From a virus (Duplodnaviria; Heunggongvirae; Uroviricota; Caudoviricetes), in IMG/VR virus record IMGVR_UViG_2778261085_000012, positions 1 through 25,936 of that record: a stretch of DNA of 25,936 bases; one strand, given 5' to 3'. The translations under genes were made by a program, and so were the position numbers. A model generated the notes under the pieces. That model was not told where the DNA came from. It did not search any database and was given only the letters and a program-made list of their open reading frames with translations. Within the stretch, counting starts at the first letter, position 1; every line of letters begins with the position of its first letter. Below are positions 1-16,452 of this stretch, piece after piece.

Positions 1-570
1 CTATGCCGGAGGATATTTATTCATTCTTTCAGATATGTGAATGGAACGATTGTCGATTATATTTGTATCAAAAATAGTTACGGCAGGATGATTAAAACAG
101 ATAGAGTGTTTAGGTCTAAGTAAATGTAGTGTTTGCAATCTGGTTATCGCTGTGTTATCAAAATTTGAGAAGTCAACAACAAGATCTACATTCAGTTTTT
201 TTATCTTTGCTTTTAGTTCGTTAAATTTATTTTTCTCGTAAGATATAAAGGCATCCACGCCAACAATATCAGTAAAGAGGAATGATACTCTTGAAGGTGC
301 TATCACATATACCACCATACCGGATTTTTGAAGTTGTTTAATAAACCCTGAGGTAACGATGCCGTCACCAATGGCCTGCATGTGCATGAAAATGCACACT
401 GTTTTATAACTATCCGGCTGTAATGATGTTTTCCTTCTGTATCGCATTTTTAGAAATGCCAGTCTGGCCTTCGTCTTTATCTTTTTTGTTTTAATATTTC
501 GCTGTCTGTTAAGCTGTTTTAATGATGAAATAACATTCATAATGGTACCCTGAAATTCCAAATCACACAT
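1..570 (-). CDS. AT-rich cargo protein; resembles only the N-terminal domain of GT9 heptosyltransferase-type glycosyltransferases (possibly truncated)
   Basis: ORF 1..600 ends with a stop at 1-3; first codon of the track ORF appears to be TTG, first ATG about 570, start uncertain. Segment KTVCIFMHMQAIGDGIVTSGFIKQLQ...VVYVIAPS has the layout of a GT9 N-terminal Rossmann domain. GC content far below neighbouring phage genes. Occupies the P2 Z/fun cargo slot downstream of G. Confidence 0.4.
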   Translation of the reverse strand: MCDLEFQGTIMNVISSLKQLNRQRNIKTKKIKTKARLAFLKMRYRRKTSLQPDSYKTVCIFMHMQAIGDGIVTSGFIKQLQKSGMVVYVIAPSRVSFLFTDIVGVDAFISYEKNKFNELKAKIKKLNVDLVVDFSNFDNTAITRLQTLHLLRPKHSICFNHPAVTIFDTNIIDNRSIHISERMNKYPPA

Positions 571-634
571 GTCATCCGAAATGAGCAGGGTACTATACAA
601 AAAACTGGACTACAATGGTTTGAAATGAAAGCCT

Positions 635-1234
635 TTATGCTTGTTTACTCCTTGATTCCACTGGGGAAGCAGGCCACTCAATATCCGGTGCTCTTGATGT
701 ATCAACACGGTTCAGCAGCACTCGATACTTCTTCCATGCCACCAGTAACGATGTTTCTTCCTCTGTTGCAATATTCAAATCCACGGCATCCTGAAGTGGC
801 GAAATATGCTCACTGGCTACCTGCATGAGGCTGTTTTTTGTTTCTTCCGCCTCCCGTATCCGGAACACTTTTTCTGCTTCTGCATCTTTCACCCACGTTG
901 TGCCGTTCCACTTCTGAAACTCCCCTTCCGGGGATAACCAGGTGACATTTTCCGGTAATGGACCAAGTTCAGAAATAAATAACGCGCCCCCTGATGCCAC
1001 GTCATAAACCGTTTTACCACGATGATCTTCAACGAGATGCCAGGACGCCTTATCACTGTTGAAAATTGCCACGAAGCCAGCTGGAATATCTGGCGGAGCA
1101 ATATCAGTACTATTTGCAGGTAGACCTGTATGAGGTGGAATGTATGCATCACCTTCACCAATAAATTCATTAGTTCCGGCCAGCAGATTATAAATTGTTA
1201 TGGTCCGTGGTTGTTCACTCATTCTGAAATCCAT
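635..1234 (-). CDS. G: tail fibre assembly chaperone (Tfa, P2 gpG-like)
   Basis: N-terminus [48 protein letters not shown] and C-terminus [33 protein letters not shown] match enterobacterial Tfa proteins; track codon 1 appears to be GTG, ATG at codon 3 preceded by GAGG. Confidence 0.85.
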
Positions 1235-1242
1235 GTTCACCT

Positions 1243-2145
1243 CTACTTAATATCAGAGACAGAATATTGTTTATTGAGCGTATGGGTGTGAGCACCAATA
1301 ACGATGCTACTTCCGTGGCTATGTGCGCCAGAGATGACATTACCTACGGGATTTTCTGGATTAATCCGGTGTATATGCGAACCAGGGCGAAACCGGTTAT
1401 TAGCCTGATGTTGTATCAGTACATCATCAGCCTGATGTTCAGGGTTAATACAGACCTGCCCGGAACGGGAGCAATACGTCCGATAATCGCCGCATCCAAT
1501 ATATTTAGTATCCGCATAACGGCAAACAGAATTACCCGGACAGTATGCATATGTGCCAAATACTGCCGACTGGCGGGATTGTGCGTATTCCCAGTTAATT
1601 GATTCTGTTTTTTTATTAAAGTTATCCCATGCCTGCTTCATCTGCCGGGCAACACTTTCAAACGGAACCTGACCACATCCGGCTCCCATTGCAGGGAATA
1701 CCACCGTTTTTATTTTCCTGTCTGTCGTTGCGTGTTTATTGTGCTGAAAGATGGCAAGCAGAGCGGCCCAGGTTGCGTTATATACAGCGTCTGTTCCGTC
1801 AATTGTCAGCGGAACACGCATTGTTGGCGCATGTACCAGCCAGGGGTGATGATTATGCCCCGTTTCAATAACAAATGCAGAACCTACAGGCTGCTCGCCG
1901 AGATATTCACGAAGAATATGATTCTGAACGCGGGACTGTAACTGAGTACCGAAGAATGCGGTAATGGCGGCATCAACACCGCCATCCATCAGGCCGAAAC
2001 TGTTTGCCGCACTTACCATGCAGTCAAATTCCCTGATTGTTTCAAATGGCTTTCCGACAATATTCACATTATCTGCATTTGCGAATACCCGCTTAAATGC
2101 TTCAGCCATTTCTGTTACTGGTGCAGAAAGAATGAGCGTAATCAT
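1243..2145 (-). CDS. macro-domain (ADP-ribose binding/processing) protein with C-terminal HxH fibre-tip-like repeats
   Basis: Three macro-domain motifs: [65 protein letters not shown]-terminus SHIH...[18 protein letters not shown]. Start ATG overlaps the H stop codon (ATGA); stop lies a few nt before G. Confidence 0.7.
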
Positions 2146-4121
2146 GCAAGCCTCACAATATAGTTAAATGCGATGTTTTTGACGGTGTTTTCCGCGTTGC
2201 CATAAGCGGCAATGGTAATGGTGTGTGTATGCGAACCAATAGCGAGCGTATGTGTATGCGCACCTATTGCTACTGTGTGAGTATGAGCTCCTGCGCTTAA
2301 TACGCGATTACTTGCTGTCTTGCTTGTGTTAGTTGCATGCATTCCACCACCGGTACCGGGAGTTTCTGCGTATGCTGAAGTATTGTTGTAAGCAAAGTTG
2401 TGTGTATGTGCTCCGGTGTTATTTGTGGATTTAGTTCCGTAATCAAACGACGATGTGGTTTTCGTCCCCAAATCCGTACTGGATGCGCTGGCGCTGTGGG
2501 TGTGCGATTTAATGCCGTCCTGTTCCTGAGACAATACGGCTCGACCACTGGCAGGTTTGCCCTTAATCGTCCAGCCACGCATATCAGGGATCACGCCTGA
2601 CGGATAAGCGGCTGCAAGTTTCGGGTATGCAGATTTGTCAAAAGTCTGCCCCTGCATCAGGGCATAACCAGACGGAACGGTATCTGATGGCCACGGGATT
2701 GGTGCGCCAGGCGGATAAAACTGCTCTGATGGCGTATAGAGTGAATAAACTGTACCGTCCGTTAACCCTTCCGGCTTATTAGCAGAATATGCTGGTGACG
2801 TATGAATAGTCACGCTGGCATTACTGGTATAATCCCATTGAATATTTACACCAGTCGCATAATTTTCGATTGCAACGTAAATATCGTAAGTATCACCAGA
2901 TGTATTGACCCAGGCAAAATTTGTAAACCCTGTCGATGTGCGCTGCCATAAAGCACCAGTAATCCCCTTCGGATTACCATTACCTGCACGCAAAACAAGT
3001 TCAGATATACCTGCCTGTTGAGGTGAACCGACGTTATATCCAGCGCCACCAATCAACGTAATTGAAACAACAGAACTCGCCTGTGGCATGGTTACCGTTG
3101 CTAATTTGAACCAACCAGCACCACCGCTGAATGACATAGTTGTTGAGTTAAGCGTACCAATATCTTTCGGCGTCAGTGTAATATCCGCTGAAAGGGCCTT
3201 ACCATTCACCTTACGGGCAGAAGGTACCCGACCATTCGCATTGTCATTAGCTGCTTTCACTGCTTTCGGTGTCGCGGTAAGCGTTTCAGATGTGCTGTTA
3301 GTCGCGCTGCTTAGCTGGACAATCCCTTTTTGTGCTGTCGTAGCGTCCTGTGCAGTGTATTTCCCGTTAGCAAGGTCATACGCGGCCTTTACCGCTTTTG
3401 GTGTTGCGGCGAGCGTTTCTGAATCGCTGTTGGTGGCGCTACTGAGCTGGACAAGGCCTTTCCGCGCTGTAGTGGCGTCCTGCGCAGTATATTTCCCGTT
3501 AGCAAGGTCATATGCTGCCTTTACCGCCTTTGGTGTTGCAGCCTGTGTTTCAGACACGCTGTTAGTGTCGCTACTGAGTTGAACAAAGCCTTTTGCGGTC
3601 AGCGAGGCGTCCGGGTGACGTCGTGACTGTTCATGCTCTTTCAGTTTGTCATCCACGTAATCCACTGTGGCCATCACCATGGTGTTATCCACGGTAAGTG
3701 CCACAGTGGCAGTGCTGGATACGGTCAGAATGGTGCGAAATGTTTGTGCACGTCCTGATCCTTCGGCAACGGTAGGCTTGTAACTTTCGGCAGTATTGCC
3801 CACCGCGATTAAATCGCCGTGCTCATCAAACACACCAATTTCCCTGATCCAGAATCCGCCCGTTTCTGGAGGAATAACCAGCTCTGCAATAATGCGGTTT
3901 TGATGTGTTGCGTCCAGGATGACGCGATTAACAGTATGTCGCCACACCTCATGCACCAGACGGGTCTGCTTACTGTCTGGTGTGGGCAATGTACCGCCAC
4001 CGTCGCCCACGGCCATATGAGTCAGGCGGACAGGCTTACCATCTGGCGCGGCTGCCTGAGCTAATTTTTTGGCACCCGTATCGGTGATAACGGTTTTAAA
4101 TTTACGTGTTGTGGTACTCAT
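2142..4121 (-). CDS. H: tail fibre protein (P2 gpH-like)
   Basis: 659 aa; N-terminus [26 protein letters not shown]...HEVWRH...IAELVIPPE matches the conserved baseplate-attachment end of P2 H; three approx. 44-aa shaft repeats; C-terminal HxH repeats (AHTHN, AHTHT, AHTHT, SHTHT). Confidence 0.9.
3246..3593 (-). repeat. three tandem approx. 132-bp in-frame coding repeats in the fibre shaft of H
   Basis: Peptide repeat KG(F/L/I)VQLSS(D/A)TNS.SET(Q/L)(A/T)[25 protein letters not shown] occurs three times; the nucleotide repeats are visible directly. Confidence 0.75.
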
Positions 4122-8112: not shown

Positions 8113-8501
8113 GCCGGATAGGCTCCGTGTGGTAACTGAAAATGCGGTCCGTCTTTCAGGGTCTTCCAGTCGCCGCCCCATTCCACCGGAATATTCAGCT
8201 CCCGGCTGGCCTGTCTGAATGCTGCTGCGATTTTTTCGTACAGCGGCCATTCCCATGACACCTGGCTGCCGATATAAGCCACAACATCCACGGCATGTCC
8301 CGTAAGGTGGCGGCTGTTCATGGTCTGGCTCTTACCCGTGGCCACCAGTTGCTTCTGGCGGTAACGGCTGCGCAACCCTTCGGTGATACCAAAATCCACT
8401 TCCGAGATTTCCAGTGCCCGTCGGGTCACTTTCACCAGATCAGGATTTACGCCCTGCAAATTCTTTTCGCTCCGGCTGCTGAATTTAAATGTGTTGCTCA
8501 T
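8109..8501 (-). CDS. endolysin, peptidase M15 (L-Ala-D-Glu / DD-peptidase type)
   Basis: 130 aa; SRHLTGHAVDV and HFQLPHG zinc-ligand motifs typical of M15 endopeptidase endolysins. Confidence 0.8.
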   Translation of the reverse strand: MSNTFKFSSRSEKNLQGVNPDLVKVTRRALEISEVDFGITEGLRSRYRQKQLVATGKSQTMNSRHLTGHAVDVVAYIGSQVSWEWPLYEKIAAAFRQASRELNIPVEWGGDWKTLKDGPHFQLPHGAYPA

Positions 8502-8821
8502 TCGTCCTTCTCCTTCACCCTGCGATTAAAGGCCGCAATAACCTTGTCGCGTGCTTTCTCTGCCCCCATAAAACCGATTGATGCGCCGATAAACGTCACG
8601 GCATCTTCAGGAAACCCGAAGAAGCGCAACGACCCGGCCACGGCCATGGCAAGAACGCCGCACGCCAGCGATCCCGTTACGGTCTGAACCAGTGTTCGTC
8701 CGTCATAAAGACTCATCAGCGCGGAAATGCTGACTGCCGCGCCTACTGCATACACCGTTGGCAGGTGGTCAAAGAGCCACGCAATAACCTGCTCTGTGAT
8801 CCCTGTTTGAATGGTGCTCAC
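8498..8821 (-). CDS. holin (putative, GTG start)
   Basis: Track ORF 8498..9040 overlaps X; the plausible product starts at an internal GTG preceded by GGAG right after the X stop. Predicted TM segments with a charged C-terminal tail (KARDKVIAAFNRRVKEKDE). Confidence 0.6.
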   Translation of the reverse strand: MSTIQTGITEQVIAWLFDHLPTVYAVGAAVSISALMSLYDGRTLVQTVTGSLACGVLAMAVAGSLRFFGFPEDAVTFIGASIGFMGAEKARDKVIAAFNRRVKEKDE

Positions 8822-8823
8822 TG

Positions 8824-9024
8824 CTACTCCCCCCACAACTGAATCATTTCTCGTTTCTTCTTCTCCGGCTCCGGCATCTCCACTTCCTGCCCGGCGTCCA
8901 GAAATACCTGCTGACAGAGTCCGGGGTTGGCATCCAGCACCTTTTCGGTGACGCCCTGCGTCGTGCCGTAGTACCGGAAACAGAGCGAATCCACGGTGTC
9001 GCCTTCCAGTGCCTTCACTTTCAT
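8824..9024 (-). CDS. X: tail protein X
   Basis: MKVKALEGDTVDSLCFRYYGTTQGVTEKVLDANPGL matches P2 gpX; ATG overlaps the L stop. Confidence 0.8.
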   Translation of the reverse strand: MKVKALEGDTVDSLCFRYYGTTQGVTEKVLDANPGLCQQVFLDAGQEVEMPEPEKKKREMIQLWGE

Positions 9025-9527
9025 CAGCACAGCTCCGCAAAGATTCGCGGGCGGCGCAGAATGTCAGAGATGGCCCAGCTCACATCGCGCCACAAATCCG
9101 ATGTCTGTATATCCAGTGCGTCCGCGCGGCGGTCGCCCTTATCCGTTGTGTCCGCATCGCGGTAACGCTCCAGAATCAGGGCGCGTGTGGCGGTATAAAC
9201 GGCATTGCGCCAGTGCCAGAGATTGACGCTTTCTCCGTTAATTACGGGTGCCGGAACATCGGCCAGCGTCTGATGGCCAGCCGCCTGTTGTTCCTGCTGC
9301 CACGCTTCCAGCTCGCGGGTAACGTGTGCCACGGCCCCGGTGGCGGTATGCAGCAGGCGGGAGGTGGTCACACGGCCCGGCAGTCGTATCGCCAGACGCA
9401 GCTCACGCAGCACAATATCCGGCCAGAATGCGCCCGCTGAAATACGGGTATCACCATCATCGGTATCGGTGATGTCGTCCTCTGCGGGTCCGGGGTTGGT
9501 TCTGGCAACCATACTCATGGGGTTCAC
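9024..9527 (-). CDS. L: head completion/stabilisation protein L
   Basis: 167 aa; position and C-terminal pattern (DLWRDVSWAISDILRRPR) as P2 gpL. Confidence 0.8.
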   Translation of the reverse strand: MNPMSMVARTNPGPAEDDITDTDDGDTRISAGAFWPDIVLRELRLAIRLPGRVTTSRLLHTATGAVAHVTRELEAWQQEQQAAGHQTLADVPAPVINGESVNLWHWRNAVYTATRALILERYRDADTTDKGDRRADALDIQTSDLWRDVSWAISDILRRPRIFAELC

Positions 9528-9620
9528 TCCTGAAAAAAATCGGGCGGTGGGTGCGCGGTGTAAACGGTCACGGAGTCAAACCGGAACACCGCGCACGCCG
9601 CCCGCTGACGGGGTCAGTCG

Positions 9621-10421
9621 TTAACCGCGCTTCGCCTTCTGCGTCGCGGTGGTTTTTCGTGTTGCAGGCTTCCGCGTTGTCTTTTTACTTTTGCTGCTTT
9701 CGTCCTGCGCCTGCTGTGCGCTGGCGTCTTCTGGTTCGGCTGCGGAATCGGCTTTTTTCAGGGCGCGGGAAAGGGTTGCAATCTCGCGTTTCACACCTGC
9801 GTTCGGGTTCAGGTGCATCGTTTCGCGCAGCAGCTTCAGTGATAAGGCCATGTTGTCTGCATCGGTCAGACCACGACGGGCAAAGGCGCACGCCTTGCAT
9901 AATTTGGCGCGCACTTCGTCCGGCATGTCCTGGTCGGTGACAATCTCCCGGAGGGTATCCAGTGGTTCGATAAAGGCGGACAAATCCGCGTCAGCATCCG
10001 TCCCGGCCTGCGTCAGTACCGGGTTGCAGATTTCTTCGGTCAGCACTGTGGCAGCCGTACGGCCAAAGTTATCAGGCATAATGAGGTTATGACGGACCAC
10101 ATACGCACCAATACGCAACGCCAGTGGAAGATCGCCGCAGTCAATCGCCCACACCATCAGCGTGGCAATCACTTCGTCCTGCTGCCCGCCGTCAGCCTCC
10201 AGCGTTCCCTCAATCCAGCCGGAAAAGTCCGGCAACAACTCTTTTTTGATGGCGGCTTTCGCGCTTCTGGCCTGTACGCCCTTAAGCCGGGCCTGTGCCA
10301 GACGCAGACGATACAGCACCTCTTCATGCGCGGTACGCGCGGCGTGGTCCACGCCTTCATTCGCCCGGCCTGCGCGCTGTGCCATCACGTTCTGCCAGTG
10401 TTGCTGTGCAGGAGTAATCAT
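9621..10421 (-). CDS. M: terminase small (endonuclease) subunit M
   Basis: 266 aa; MITPAQQHW...ELLPDF...MPDEVRAKL and basic C-terminal tail collinear with P2 gpM. Confidence 0.85.
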   Translation of the reverse strand: MITPAQQHWQNVMAQRAGRANEGVDHAARTAHEEVLYRLRLAQARLKGVQARSAKAAIKKELLPDFSGWIEGTLEADGGQQDEVIATLMVWAIDCGDLPLALRIGAYVVRHNLIMPDNFGRTAATVLTEEICNPVLTQAGTDADADLSAFIEPLDTLREIVTDQDMPDEVRAKLCKACAFARRGLTDADNMALSLKLLRETMHLNPNAGVKREIATLSRALKKADSAAEPEDASAQQAQDESSKSKKTTRKPATRKTTATQKAKRG

Positions 10422-15331: not shown

Positions 15332-15354
15332 CGCGCTTCGCTTGTCTGCTGCTT

Positions 15355-15385
15355 CGCCGGGGCATAAAAAATTTATGCCCCGGCT
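15355..15385 (+). other. perfect 13-bp stem-loop immediately 3' of Q (terminator-like hairpin without U-tract)
   Basis: GCCGGGGCATAAA aaa TTTATGCCCCGGC. Confidence 0.4.
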
Positions 15386-15784
15386 CTCCAGCTCCTGTAT
15401 CAGTCAGATAATTTCACGACGCTTTCCTGCTTATTGCCATCATCGACGGTCAGACTCTTACGCAATCCCACCGCGTTAACTGCATGTTCTCGCCGCCTCA
15501 GTGCGATTTTGACGGCCTTACCTTTCACCCCATCAAATCAAAAGCCCTCACGTCTTTTTCACGCTCAGCGTGAGAAATACAGCCATTCTGTTGTGTTGCT
15601 GCGACATCGTTCAGGGGATGCTATTTACCCCCTGAAACGCGGGCTGTTCCCCCGTCACCTGCGCGCAGAAAAAGCGCGTTTTTTTGTGCACGTACGGATC
15701 CTTGACGGATCCAGCCACCACGCGGGCCGGAAGTACAAAAAGTCGTTCAAAAAAATTGTGCAAACTTGTGCACTATCGTGCAAA

Positions 15785-15815
15785 CAAAAAAAAGCGCCTT
15801 ATCGGCGCTTCAAAA
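15785..15815 (-). terminator. Rho-independent terminator (minus strand)
   Basis: On the minus strand: AAGCGCC gataa GGCGCTT followed by a T9 run; sits just 3' of the 15819..16088 ORF. Confidence 0.6.
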
Positions 15816-15818
15816 GTA

Positions 15819-16088
15819 TCAATTGTTGCTGTGTATTAATCGCCAACCACGAACATATGCTTCATAGGCATCTCTGTGCCTTACAGTTCCAGCCTGGCTA
15901 AACGGAATGTTAGCTAAAACTAAATCATTCTGAGCCATAGCGCGTCCTTCAAGCGCATCTTTTATGCCTAGCTCAAAAGCACAGGCAGCGCATTTGTGCC
16001 GACCTTCTTGTCCTTGATATTCAGGGAGAGACAGAAATGTTGGGTTATAACGATGAGGGTTCTTGCAAATACCTGTTTTAGCCCGCAC
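15819..16088 (-). CDS. hypothetical 89-aa Cys/His-containing protein in the cargo slot
   Basis: GTG start preceded by GAGGT; intrinsic terminator directly downstream; contains CxxxH...HxCxxC. Overlaps a probably spurious plus-strand ORF. Confidence 0.35.
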   Translation of the reverse strand: MRAKTGICKNPHRYNPTFLSLPEYQGQEGRHKCAACAFELGIKDALEGRAMAQNDLVLANIPFSQAGTVRHRDAYEAYVRGWRLIHSNN

Positions 16089-16111
16089 TTTATTTACCTC
16101 ATAGGAAAAAT

Positions 16112-16250
16112 ATGCGTGCCTTTACAGAGGTGCGTGTAAGCAATAAAATATACGACGCACATTTTGATTTACTTCGGAAGGCACGCATATCAGGTTAAGT
16201 GAGTCCGACCGAGTTTTACGCCCCAATAGTTGCTGCTATTGGGGCGTTTT
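16112..16250 (+). other. candidate small transcript (sRNA or 28-aa peptide) ending in an intrinsic terminator
   Basis: Promoter-like TTTACA-N17-TAAAAT; 13-bp long-range inverted repeat ATATGCGTGCCTT/AAGGCACGCATAT; possible 28-codon ORF with RBS AGGA; terminator hairpin at the 3' end. Confidence 0.25.
16219..16250 (+). terminator. Rho-independent terminator (plus strand)
   Basis: CGCCCCAATAG ttgctg CTATTGGGGCG followed by TTTT. Confidence 0.6.
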
Positions 16251-16452
16251 GCATGGACAATGCCGCGCAATTATCTTGTCGCTCACAATGCGAACGATCT
16301 TACAAAAAGGCACATTACTGTCAAGATAATTGATCGTTTTAATCGATAGATAATATACAATCTATTTGTTTAACAGATCGATTATTGAAGTAAGTGTGCC
16401 AAATGGAATGATACTGTTTCTATAAACGTGAGCATTTTTCGCGCAGATGCTT

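Follow-up and report, generated by a model that had tools for sequence, protein, structure and literature searches.

A short reading frame behind the tail-fibre genes of an Escherichia coli P2-like prophage, best explained as an IS200C-made remnant of a GT9 glycosyltransferase gene

Introduction

What is the short, AT-rich reading frame that lies directly behind the tail-fibre genes of an Escherichia coli P2-like prophage, and what would the gene to which it belongs do when intact? The question is raised by the DNA analysed here (the window), a stretch of 25,936 nucleotides that carries such a prophage in reverse: its minus-strand genes run from the capsid to the tail fibre, and its plus strand carries the terminase and portal genes. 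A preliminary description, made from the letters alone, saw in the reading frame the N-terminal half of a GT9 heptosyltransferase-type enzyme that was too short to be intact, and left the choice between a remnant and a stand-alone domain. Comparison with intact relatives, modelling of the full-length protein and tracing of the sequence at the left edge of the window now make it possible to say how the reading frame arose and, more cautiously, what its parent does.

The reading frame and its setting

Within the window the minus strand carries the tail fibre gene H (2142-4121), an open reading frame with a macro domain (1243-2145) and a tail-fibre assembly gene of the P2 G / lambda Tfa type, tfa (635-1240; Pfam Caudo_TAP, E 4e-44). 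A spacer of 94 nt (541-634) separates the last of these from the ATG of the glycosyltransferase reading frame. A mechanical search gives a minus-strand frame at 1-600 with a TTG start and 199 aa, but the start annotated in intact homologues is the ATG at 540, which yields a frame of 179 aa (1-540, minus strand, stop at 1-3). This frame is chimeric. Positions 20-540 (minus strand) align with intact alleles as the 5' 521 nt of a WaaU-like GT9 gene (codons 1-173 plus 2 nt), and positions 1-19 are the terminal 19 nt of IS200C, of the IS200/IS605 family, which supply the last codons (..KYPPA) and the TAG stop; the three bases at 20-22 (TTC) can be assigned to either part, a 3-nt GAA ambiguity. The view that all of 1-600 is glycosyltransferase-like thus holds for 20-540 but not for the first 19 positions. 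RefSeq lists the 179-aa product as a 'hypothetical protein' of E. coli (WP_244580911.1). The source contig is NNXD01000009.1 (GCA_002486915.1), in which window base 1 is contig base 57, and an exact-sequence look-up finds the 179-aa sequence on this one contig only, recorded in 2 samples.

The reading frame does lie directly downstream of G in the Z/fun position, as first described. In P2 the same slot, between G and the FI / F operon, holds fun(Z), a non-essential lysogenic-conversion gene that blocks T5; the likeness is drawn from position and annotation, and fun(Z) lies on the opposite strand in P2. The carriers also differ from P2 in that the FI-FII-E-E'-T-U block is inverted in E. coli prophages with the GT9 gene, so that U converges on it, while D and ogr keep the P2 orientation. 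The arrangement is constant. In 13 IMG/VR contigs, as in complete genomes, the assembly gene is followed after about 97 nt by the glycosyltransferase gene, and after a further gap of about 100 nt come U and T, which converge on it. In 13/13 E. coli-type contigs tfa is immediately upstream of the full-length gene; it is likewise immediately upstream of the truncated copy in contig L034 and of the gene in the Providencia-type contig L035, and directly upstream in L001, L010, L005 and L014 as well.

A promoter and terminator scan of 1-1400 found neither on the gene's strand between tfa and the reading frame. The 94-nt spacer has a TATAGT box at 592-597 (minus strand), for which the scan gave no acceptable -35 element, and when the upstream regions of seven loci are aligned they contain -10-like boxes but no conserved element. 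The gene may consequently depend on read-through from the late tail-fibre operon instead of being expressed in the lysogen; if so, the case for lysogenic conversion is weakened.

The parent enzyme

By megablast, 49 of 5426 complete E. coli genomes carry the parent gene, uninterrupted in 48 of the 49, and a scan of IMG/VR gave 13 E. coli-type viral contigs with the full-length form. The 392-aa protein bears the RefSeq name 'glycosyltransferase family 9 protein' (WP_001100987.1 for the allele of strain 165). The family itself is small: only 34 clusters, with 39-98% identity, are present in a database of 5.8 billion proteins, and its hosts are E. coli, Providencia species, Orbus and metagenomes. 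Between intact alleles dN/dS is 0.29.

The intact allele passes the Pfam model PF01075 (Glyco_transf_9) with 26.9 bits against a gathering score of 22. The matching residues, 206-312, are part of what is missing from the window, and the window fragment, whether taken as 179 or 199 aa, gave no match to PF01075 or to NCBIfam at E <= 1 in a search of Pfam and NCBIfam, in which any other hits were noise with E > 0.1; the check with GT9 models proposed earlier is thus negative for the fragment and positive for its intact counterpart. The fragment alone does align colinearly with residues 16-121 of WaaU (BLASTP E 9e-5). When the family profile is compared with K-12 WaaU by hhalign, the match covers 307 columns, residues 21-340 against 13-334, with a probability of 99.5% and an E of 3.6e-23; WaaC and WaaQ follow at about 2e-6 (1.9e-6). 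A profile search of PDB sequences returned only a marginal WaaC match (E 0.09) and a spurious response regulator, so a comparison of structures was needed. The AF2 model of the intact allele (P0001), built on the family alignment, has a pLDDT of 87.9 and a pTM of 0.84 and shows a two-domain GT-B fold. A long N-terminal helix (residues 3-33) precedes the first Rossmann domain (47-161), the linker helix spans 170-179, and the second Rossmann domain, which begins at about residue 199, is followed by a C-terminal helix (353-366). The best Foldseek matches in the PDB are all GT9 enzymes, namely 3TOV (Veillonella), WaaC and WaaF, with E values from 1e-13 to 1e-10 and TM scores of 0.55-0.72, whereas for other GT-B families E is >= 1e-7 and the TM score about 0.4. 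These comparisons show the parent to encode a predicted 392-aa GT-B glycosyltransferase of family GT9 whose closest characterised relative is K-12 WaaU (RfaK), and they bear out the original reading of the fragment as the N-terminal half of such an enzyme.

Several conserved features accompany the fold. A G58-D59 pair after the first beta-strand is invariant in 21 family members, the window copy included, and aligns with the GD of WaaU and WaaQ; its aspartate is the putative equivalent of the catalytic Asp13 of WaaC. In the second domain the conserved motif VDTAIVHLASA aligns with VDTGLSHLTAA of WaaC, the region of Asp261. The conserved N-terminal stretch of about 45 residues is strongly basic, with 14 Lys/Arg and 1 acidic residue. 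The likeness to WaaU is near full-length at the profile level and takes in the N-terminal extension before the first Rossmann strand, the GD motif, a VDTA(L/I)VH(I/L)A motif and low GC (waaU 31% vs 33%), and one family homologue lies in a waa cluster. On the other hand, identity is about 21%, the E. coli copies of the family are prophage-borne and outside the waa locus, and the window copy is without the C-terminal half. WaaU, moreover, is only a 'putative' heptosyltransferase IV (ADP-heptose:LPS, GT9, outer core) in the K-12 annotation. WaaC, WaaF and 3TOV, the closest in structure, have the DT..H.A donor-domain motif in common with the family, but their sequence similarity is marginal (hmmsearch E 0.09; hhalign E 2e-6) and they do not have the basic N-terminal helix of about 45 residues.

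Base composition

The reading frame is as AT-rich as the preliminary description stated. Positions 1-540 have a GC content of 34.3%, against 52.6% for the window, and no other 540-nt stretch of the 25.9 kb goes lower (minimum 0.343; 5th percentile 0.43); GC3 is 0.32 in the reading frame and 0.6-0.7 in core phage genes. As a mark of foreign origin, however, this is weaker evidence than it appears, because low GC typifies the gene class. The outer-core waa genes of K-12 have 27-36% GC (waaU 31.0%, waaL 31.9%, waaZ 32.5% and waaS 26.8%), and the members of the present family lie 7 to 18 GC points under their own whole locus in 6 of 7 loci (4 in L016) and 2.5 to 21 points below the 5 kb upstream. 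The description of the gene as 'compositionally foreign' is thus right about the low GC and doubtful about what it signifies: judged by its relatives, the AT-richness of the locus reflects the class of gene rather than an exotic donor.

Neighbourhoods of the homologues and the probable role of the intact enzyme

The surroundings of the homologues point to the LPS core. A 54%-identical homologue (P0009) belongs to a waa core cluster, with two GT8 genes on one side and waaA-coaD on the other, in the order WaaL-type ligase, GT9, GT4, Kdo/heptose kinase, GT4, GT8, GT8, P0009, waaA, coaD, mutM and rpmGB. The Orbus homologue adjoins a GT2 gene, a canonical GT9 gene and two EptA-like genes of the sulfatase family, and another homologue stands between asmA and an O-antigen cluster. 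The Providencia copies are prophage-borne and, as in E. coli, immediately follow a Caudo_TAP assembly gene; the prophages of P. stuartii and P. alcalifaciens that have the gene carry a baseplate of the E217/Pam3 type, and that of P. rettgeri has a Mu-type baseplate. In P. rettgeri the gene forms a pair with a GT2 gene beside the integrase.

Enzymes of GT9 transfer heptose to the LPS core, or GlcNAc in the case of WaaK-type members. By analogy with these relatives, we infer that the intact enzyme modifies the LPS core. It would act at the cytoplasmic face of the inner membrane, where its very basic N-terminal helix might hold it, and would add one sugar, a heptose or a hexosamine, to the core oligosaccharide. 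The altered core would probably mask or change a phage receptor, and this change would limit superinfection, or else the re-adsorption of progeny to lysogens and debris. LPS-associated structures are the receptors of P2-like phages (PMC13622650), and it is for this reason that the gene's place behind the fibre genes is probably a matter of masking the receptor.

The same position behind the fibre genes can be read differently. GT9-related enzymes include the autotransporter heptosyltransferases TibC and Aah, and if the parent enzyme glycosylated a phage or host protein in their manner, a tail fibre for example, and not LPS, its constant place after the fibre and assembly genes would be explained. 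The gene is found on the same strand immediately after tfa in three prophage backbones (P2-like, and those with E217/Pam3-type and Mu-type baseplates), no terminator is predicted between the two genes in E. coli, and TibC is among the structural matches of the model, at rank 31. That match (E 2e-6, TM 0.45) is, however, far poorer than those to WaaC, WaaF and 3TOV; the strongest relative by sequence, WaaU, is an LPS enzyme; and the chromosomal homologues have waa/LPS and O-antigen genes for neighbours and no phage in their vicinity. Glycosylation of a protein therefore seems very unlikely, and action on the LPS core remains the preferred reading of the intact enzyme.

A wider proposal can be made tentatively, as a serious possibility that falls short of being the probable case. 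The intact gene may be a mobile 'tail-fibre-linked LPS-core conversion' module that has been captured by at least three unrelated myovirus backbones, each time directly after the tail-fibre assembly gene, and that, by remodelling the LPS core, removes the phage's own receptor from the lysogen or the lysing cell. Its repeated disruption by IS elements in E. coli, by IS200C, by ISKpn26 in strain CH468 and in many split draft-genome copies, might then be the outcome of a fitness cost, or of selection against the altered core.

Truncation of the window copy by IS200C

How the window copy came to be so short is recorded at its left edge. Over gene nucleotides 1-521 (window 540 to 20) the copy shows 3 substitutions relative to the intact strain 165 allele, and from nucleotide 522 (window 19) onward the two are unrelated; the megablast matches from complete E. 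coli genomes all end near window position 16-20. The 19 divergent nucleotides and the 56 nt that follow to the end of the contig read ...TAAATATCCTCCGGCATAGCCGGAGGTTTTTCAAATGCGCC..., and 2715 E. coli genomes contain this junction stretch, with as many as 35 copies in a single genome. Across the junction, 81/81 nt are identical to IS200C ends in LF82 and other strains, where the adjoining tnpA gene is annotated 'IS200/IS605-like element IS200C family transposase'. In addition, three IS200C copies with unrelated flanks set the boundary of the element exactly where the window leaves the glycosyltransferase gene. The visible part of the element amounts to 75 nt (window 1-19 plus 56 nt of contig), is identical to IS200C termini and includes the terminal hairpin CCTCCGG-CATA-GCCGGAGG, followed by TTTTT. 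Only one end of IS200C is in the contig; the complete element is about 710 bp long and carries tnpA.

The uninterrupted form of the locus is also available. Contig L031 of IMG/VR matches window 16-3578 with 2 mismatches in 3563 nt (99.94% identity), a region that takes in the same macro-domain and assembly genes, and it reads through the insertion point (...GAAAGAATGAA|AAAAGTTTTATC...) into a complete reading frame of 392 aa. By this identity, L031 is the 'before' state of the window's locus. The existence of such an empty-site allele suggests that the element simply inserted and did not also delete the 3' half of the gene. IS200C has inserted after gene nucleotide 521, so that in place of codons 174-392 the frame has five to six codons and a stop that derive from the IS. 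The sequence beyond codon 173 is that of IS200C and not an out-of-frame copy of the gene, which disposes of a frameshifted continuation. Since the fragment is 3 nt from intact alleles, the disruption is recent; and the multi-copy nature of IS200C accounts for the end of the assembly contig 56 nt left of the window.

These findings also bear on what lies to the left, where further cargo had been suspected. Extension in that direction is limited to the 56 nt before the contig ends, all of it IS200C terminus. Beyond the contig one would expect the other end of IS200C, '...TTTTCTGTGCACAA', followed by the remainder of the gene, 'AAAAGTTTTATCTTTACTAAAG', so that IS200C should be followed by the missing 658 nt of the gene's 3' part, with gene U after them. 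Intact relatives carry nothing else before the convergent gene U, so additional cargo is not expected.

The proximity of the junction to the contig end (75 nt, in a short-read draft assembly) invites the objection that the end of the contig was wrongly joined to IS200C and that the gene is intact in the genome. Yet the switch from gene to element occurs exactly at the IS200C terminus that independent copies define, as a true insertion gives, and multi-copy IS elements are typical sites of contig breaks. ISKpn26, moreover, disrupts the same gene independently in the complete genome of strain CH468. An assembly artefact can accordingly be given very little credence, and a genuine IS200C insertion is taken as the cause of the truncation.

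State of the truncated product

The reading frame spans residues 1-173 of the 392-aa protein, its front 44% (521 nt of the 1179-nt gene). After 173 glycosyltransferase codons the frame ends in N-K-Y-P-P-A and a stop, which the junction and the IS supply. The basic N-terminal helix, the N-terminal Rossmann domain and the invariant G58-D59 are retained; the break at residue 173 falls inside the linker helix 170-179, and the VDTAIVHLASA donor motif (residues 289-299 of the intact protein) is absent owing to the IS200C insertion. GT-B enzymes need both halves and the returning C-terminal helix. Having lost the whole donor-binding domain, the window copy is, as judged from its sequence, almost certainly inactive. 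In the source strain the LPS-modifying function would thus be lost, and the truncated product would be non-functional and transfer no sugar.

It could be argued instead that the 179 aa work by themselves as a stand-alone N-terminal (acceptor-binding) domain, LPS-core-binding or dominant-negative for example, that has been kept by selection. The reading frame is open, its start, GD motif and entire predicted domain are preserved, and RefSeq annotates it as a protein. But its end was made by IS sequence, the exact product occurs on that single contig in 2 samples, none of the 34 family clusters is naturally so short (0/34), and the C-terminal helix 353-366 of the model has gone as well. A distance of 3 nt from intact alleles, furthermore, leaves no time for a new function to have arisen. 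That the product is a selected domain is hardly conceivable; of the two possibilities left by the preliminary description, the stand-alone domain finds no support, its end being IS-derived, and the remnant is borne out by the truncation at codon 174 and by the uninterrupted gene of L031.

Considered as a whole, the evidence makes it highly probable that window 1-540 is a recent IS200C-made remnant of a prophage accessory GT9 gene (a 'moron') whose parent probably alters the LPS core, and this is the best single explanation of the locus. The feature in the window is an ordinary, recently made pseudogene and no new kind of cargo.

Comparison with known phage-encoded systems

Among deposited phages there is no close copy of the parent gene, Campylobacter phages A11a and A18a having only a gene with 23% identity, and plasmids carry only GT9 genes of 24-27% identity. 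PADLOC gave no defence-system match for the intact allele or the fragment, and PHROGs places the family in phrog_36326, of 'unknown function'. A search of the literature on prophage heptosyltransferases, waaU or GT9 genes and the LPS core in P2-like phages found no description or functional test of the gene, and two papers on P2 hotspots, PMC9122126 among them, mention neither glycosyl- nor heptosyltransferases. The prophage cargo listed for P. aeruginosa does include GT9 genes (PMC10449497). By its sequence relationships, the parent gene is an uncharacterised, new member of the phage-encoded genes for modification of surface glycans, although its naming as GT9 is already in RefSeq.

Genes of that kind include the gtrABC operons of P22 and the Shigella phages, which modify surface polysaccharide for lysogenic conversion. 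Like them, the present family consists of accessory glycosyltransferases that temperate phages carry at the edge of the tail module and that would be expected to alter the phage's own class of receptor. The gtr systems act on the O-antigen in the periplasm by means of three membrane proteins, whereas the model of the family described here predicts one GT-B enzyme, soluble or peripheral, of the core-assembly type.

That the parent gene is instead an intracellular anti-phage defence of the P2-hotspot kind, with no surface modification, is barely plausible: the locus is variable in P2, with fun(Z) at the same position, and P2 hotspots are rich in defence systems (PMC9122126), but PADLOC finds no match and the gene is a single one with a complete glycosyltransferase fold and homologues in LPS clusters.

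Implications

The window copy itself matters little; it is a dead gene, and one IS200C insertion explains both its truncation and the break in the contig. Its parent is of modest interest. If the intact gene does remodel the LPS core, it would be the equivalent, at the level of the core, of lysogenic conversion of the O-antigen, and it would be relevant to phage host range, to the typing of E. coli cores and to resistance in phage therapy.

The N-terminal segment and fate of the GT9 gene

The first 45 residues of the GT9-gene product, encoded at 406-540 of the window (minus strand), form a conserved and very basic segment, with 14 Lys/Arg against 1 acidic residue, for which one long helix is predicted. 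WaaU has such a basic N-terminal segment as well, but WaaC and WaaF do not. The segment may serve to anchor the enzyme to the membrane or to LPS.

The interruption of this gene in the window is not the sole case of its kind. In the complete genome of strain CH468, it is broken by ISKpn26, a member of the IS5 family, at a site different from that in the window. At least seven further proteins of the same cluster (among P0038-P0047) are 'partial', with differing break points at the contig ends of draft assemblies, and in one IMG/VR contig (L034) the match to the GT9 protein stops at residue 205, 69 nt short of the contig end. Taken together, these independent breaks suggest that the AT-rich GT9 gene is either a recurrent target of insertion sequences or is selected against.

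Outside of E. coli, the GT9 homologues of a P. rettgeri prophage and of the Orbus chromosome each lie beside a gene for a GT2-family glycosyltransferase of ~325 aa (8144-9118 of the P. rettgeri locus L014 and 9134-10111 of the Orbus locus L008). This shared arrangement hints at a two-enzyme module that is missing from the E. coli prophages. Among deposited phage genomes, a homologue of the GT9 gene is detectable only in those of the Campylobacter phages A11a and A18a (hits H146 and H147), which are ~174 kb and whose records are unannotated; identity here is 23% over 81% of the protein.

A rearranged P2-like lineage

Every E. coli prophage with an intact GT9 gene (L010/L019/L020 of strain OkiPb01714, L001 of strain 165, and those among L022-L036) carries the FI-FII-E-E'-T-U block inverted relative to P2, an inversion that makes U and the GT9 gene convergent. 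The orientation of D and ogr is that of P2. In OkiPb01714, the rearranged prophage is integrated between raiA and pheL. These prophages apparently constitute a viable, rearranged P2-like lineage.

At the second variable locus of P2, the old/tin position, the window holds a short stretch between the portal gene Q and the ParM-type partition gene (15332-16452). It is low in GC (~41% around 15870-16050), and its sole plausible ORF (15819-16088, minus strand) encodes 89 aa. In the related prophage of OkiPb01714, this position is occupied by a DUF3800 gene.

A possible exchange of the fibre module

An ORF of 300 aa (1243-2145, minus strand) separates the tail-fibre gene H from the assembly gene and has a 4-nt overlap with the stop codon of H. 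Its N-terminus is a Macro domain of the ADP-ribose-binding/hydrolase type (PF01661, E 7.7e-19), its C-terminal tail resembles the His-rich C-terminal repeats of H, and the product falls in PHROG family 2613, a family of unknown function. Among E. coli prophages in RefSeq, the pair of macro-domain and assembly genes adjoins tail-fibre genes that carry the label 'prophage tail fiber N-terminal domain-containing protein' or 'stfR'. The 2400-nt query, taken as a whole (1-2400), matches 4387 of the 5426 complete E. coli genomes. Within it, the fibre tip, macro-domain ORF, and assembly gene (669-2298) are ~94% identical to E. coli modules annotated beside such tail-fibre genes. For the adjoining stretch, 16-700, identity is 99.3%, to P2-like prophages whose fibre differs. 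These alignments suggest a recombination joint within the 3'-terminal part of the assembly gene, across which the fibre module would have been exchanged with prophages bearing stfR-type tail fibres, which we read as lambdoid.
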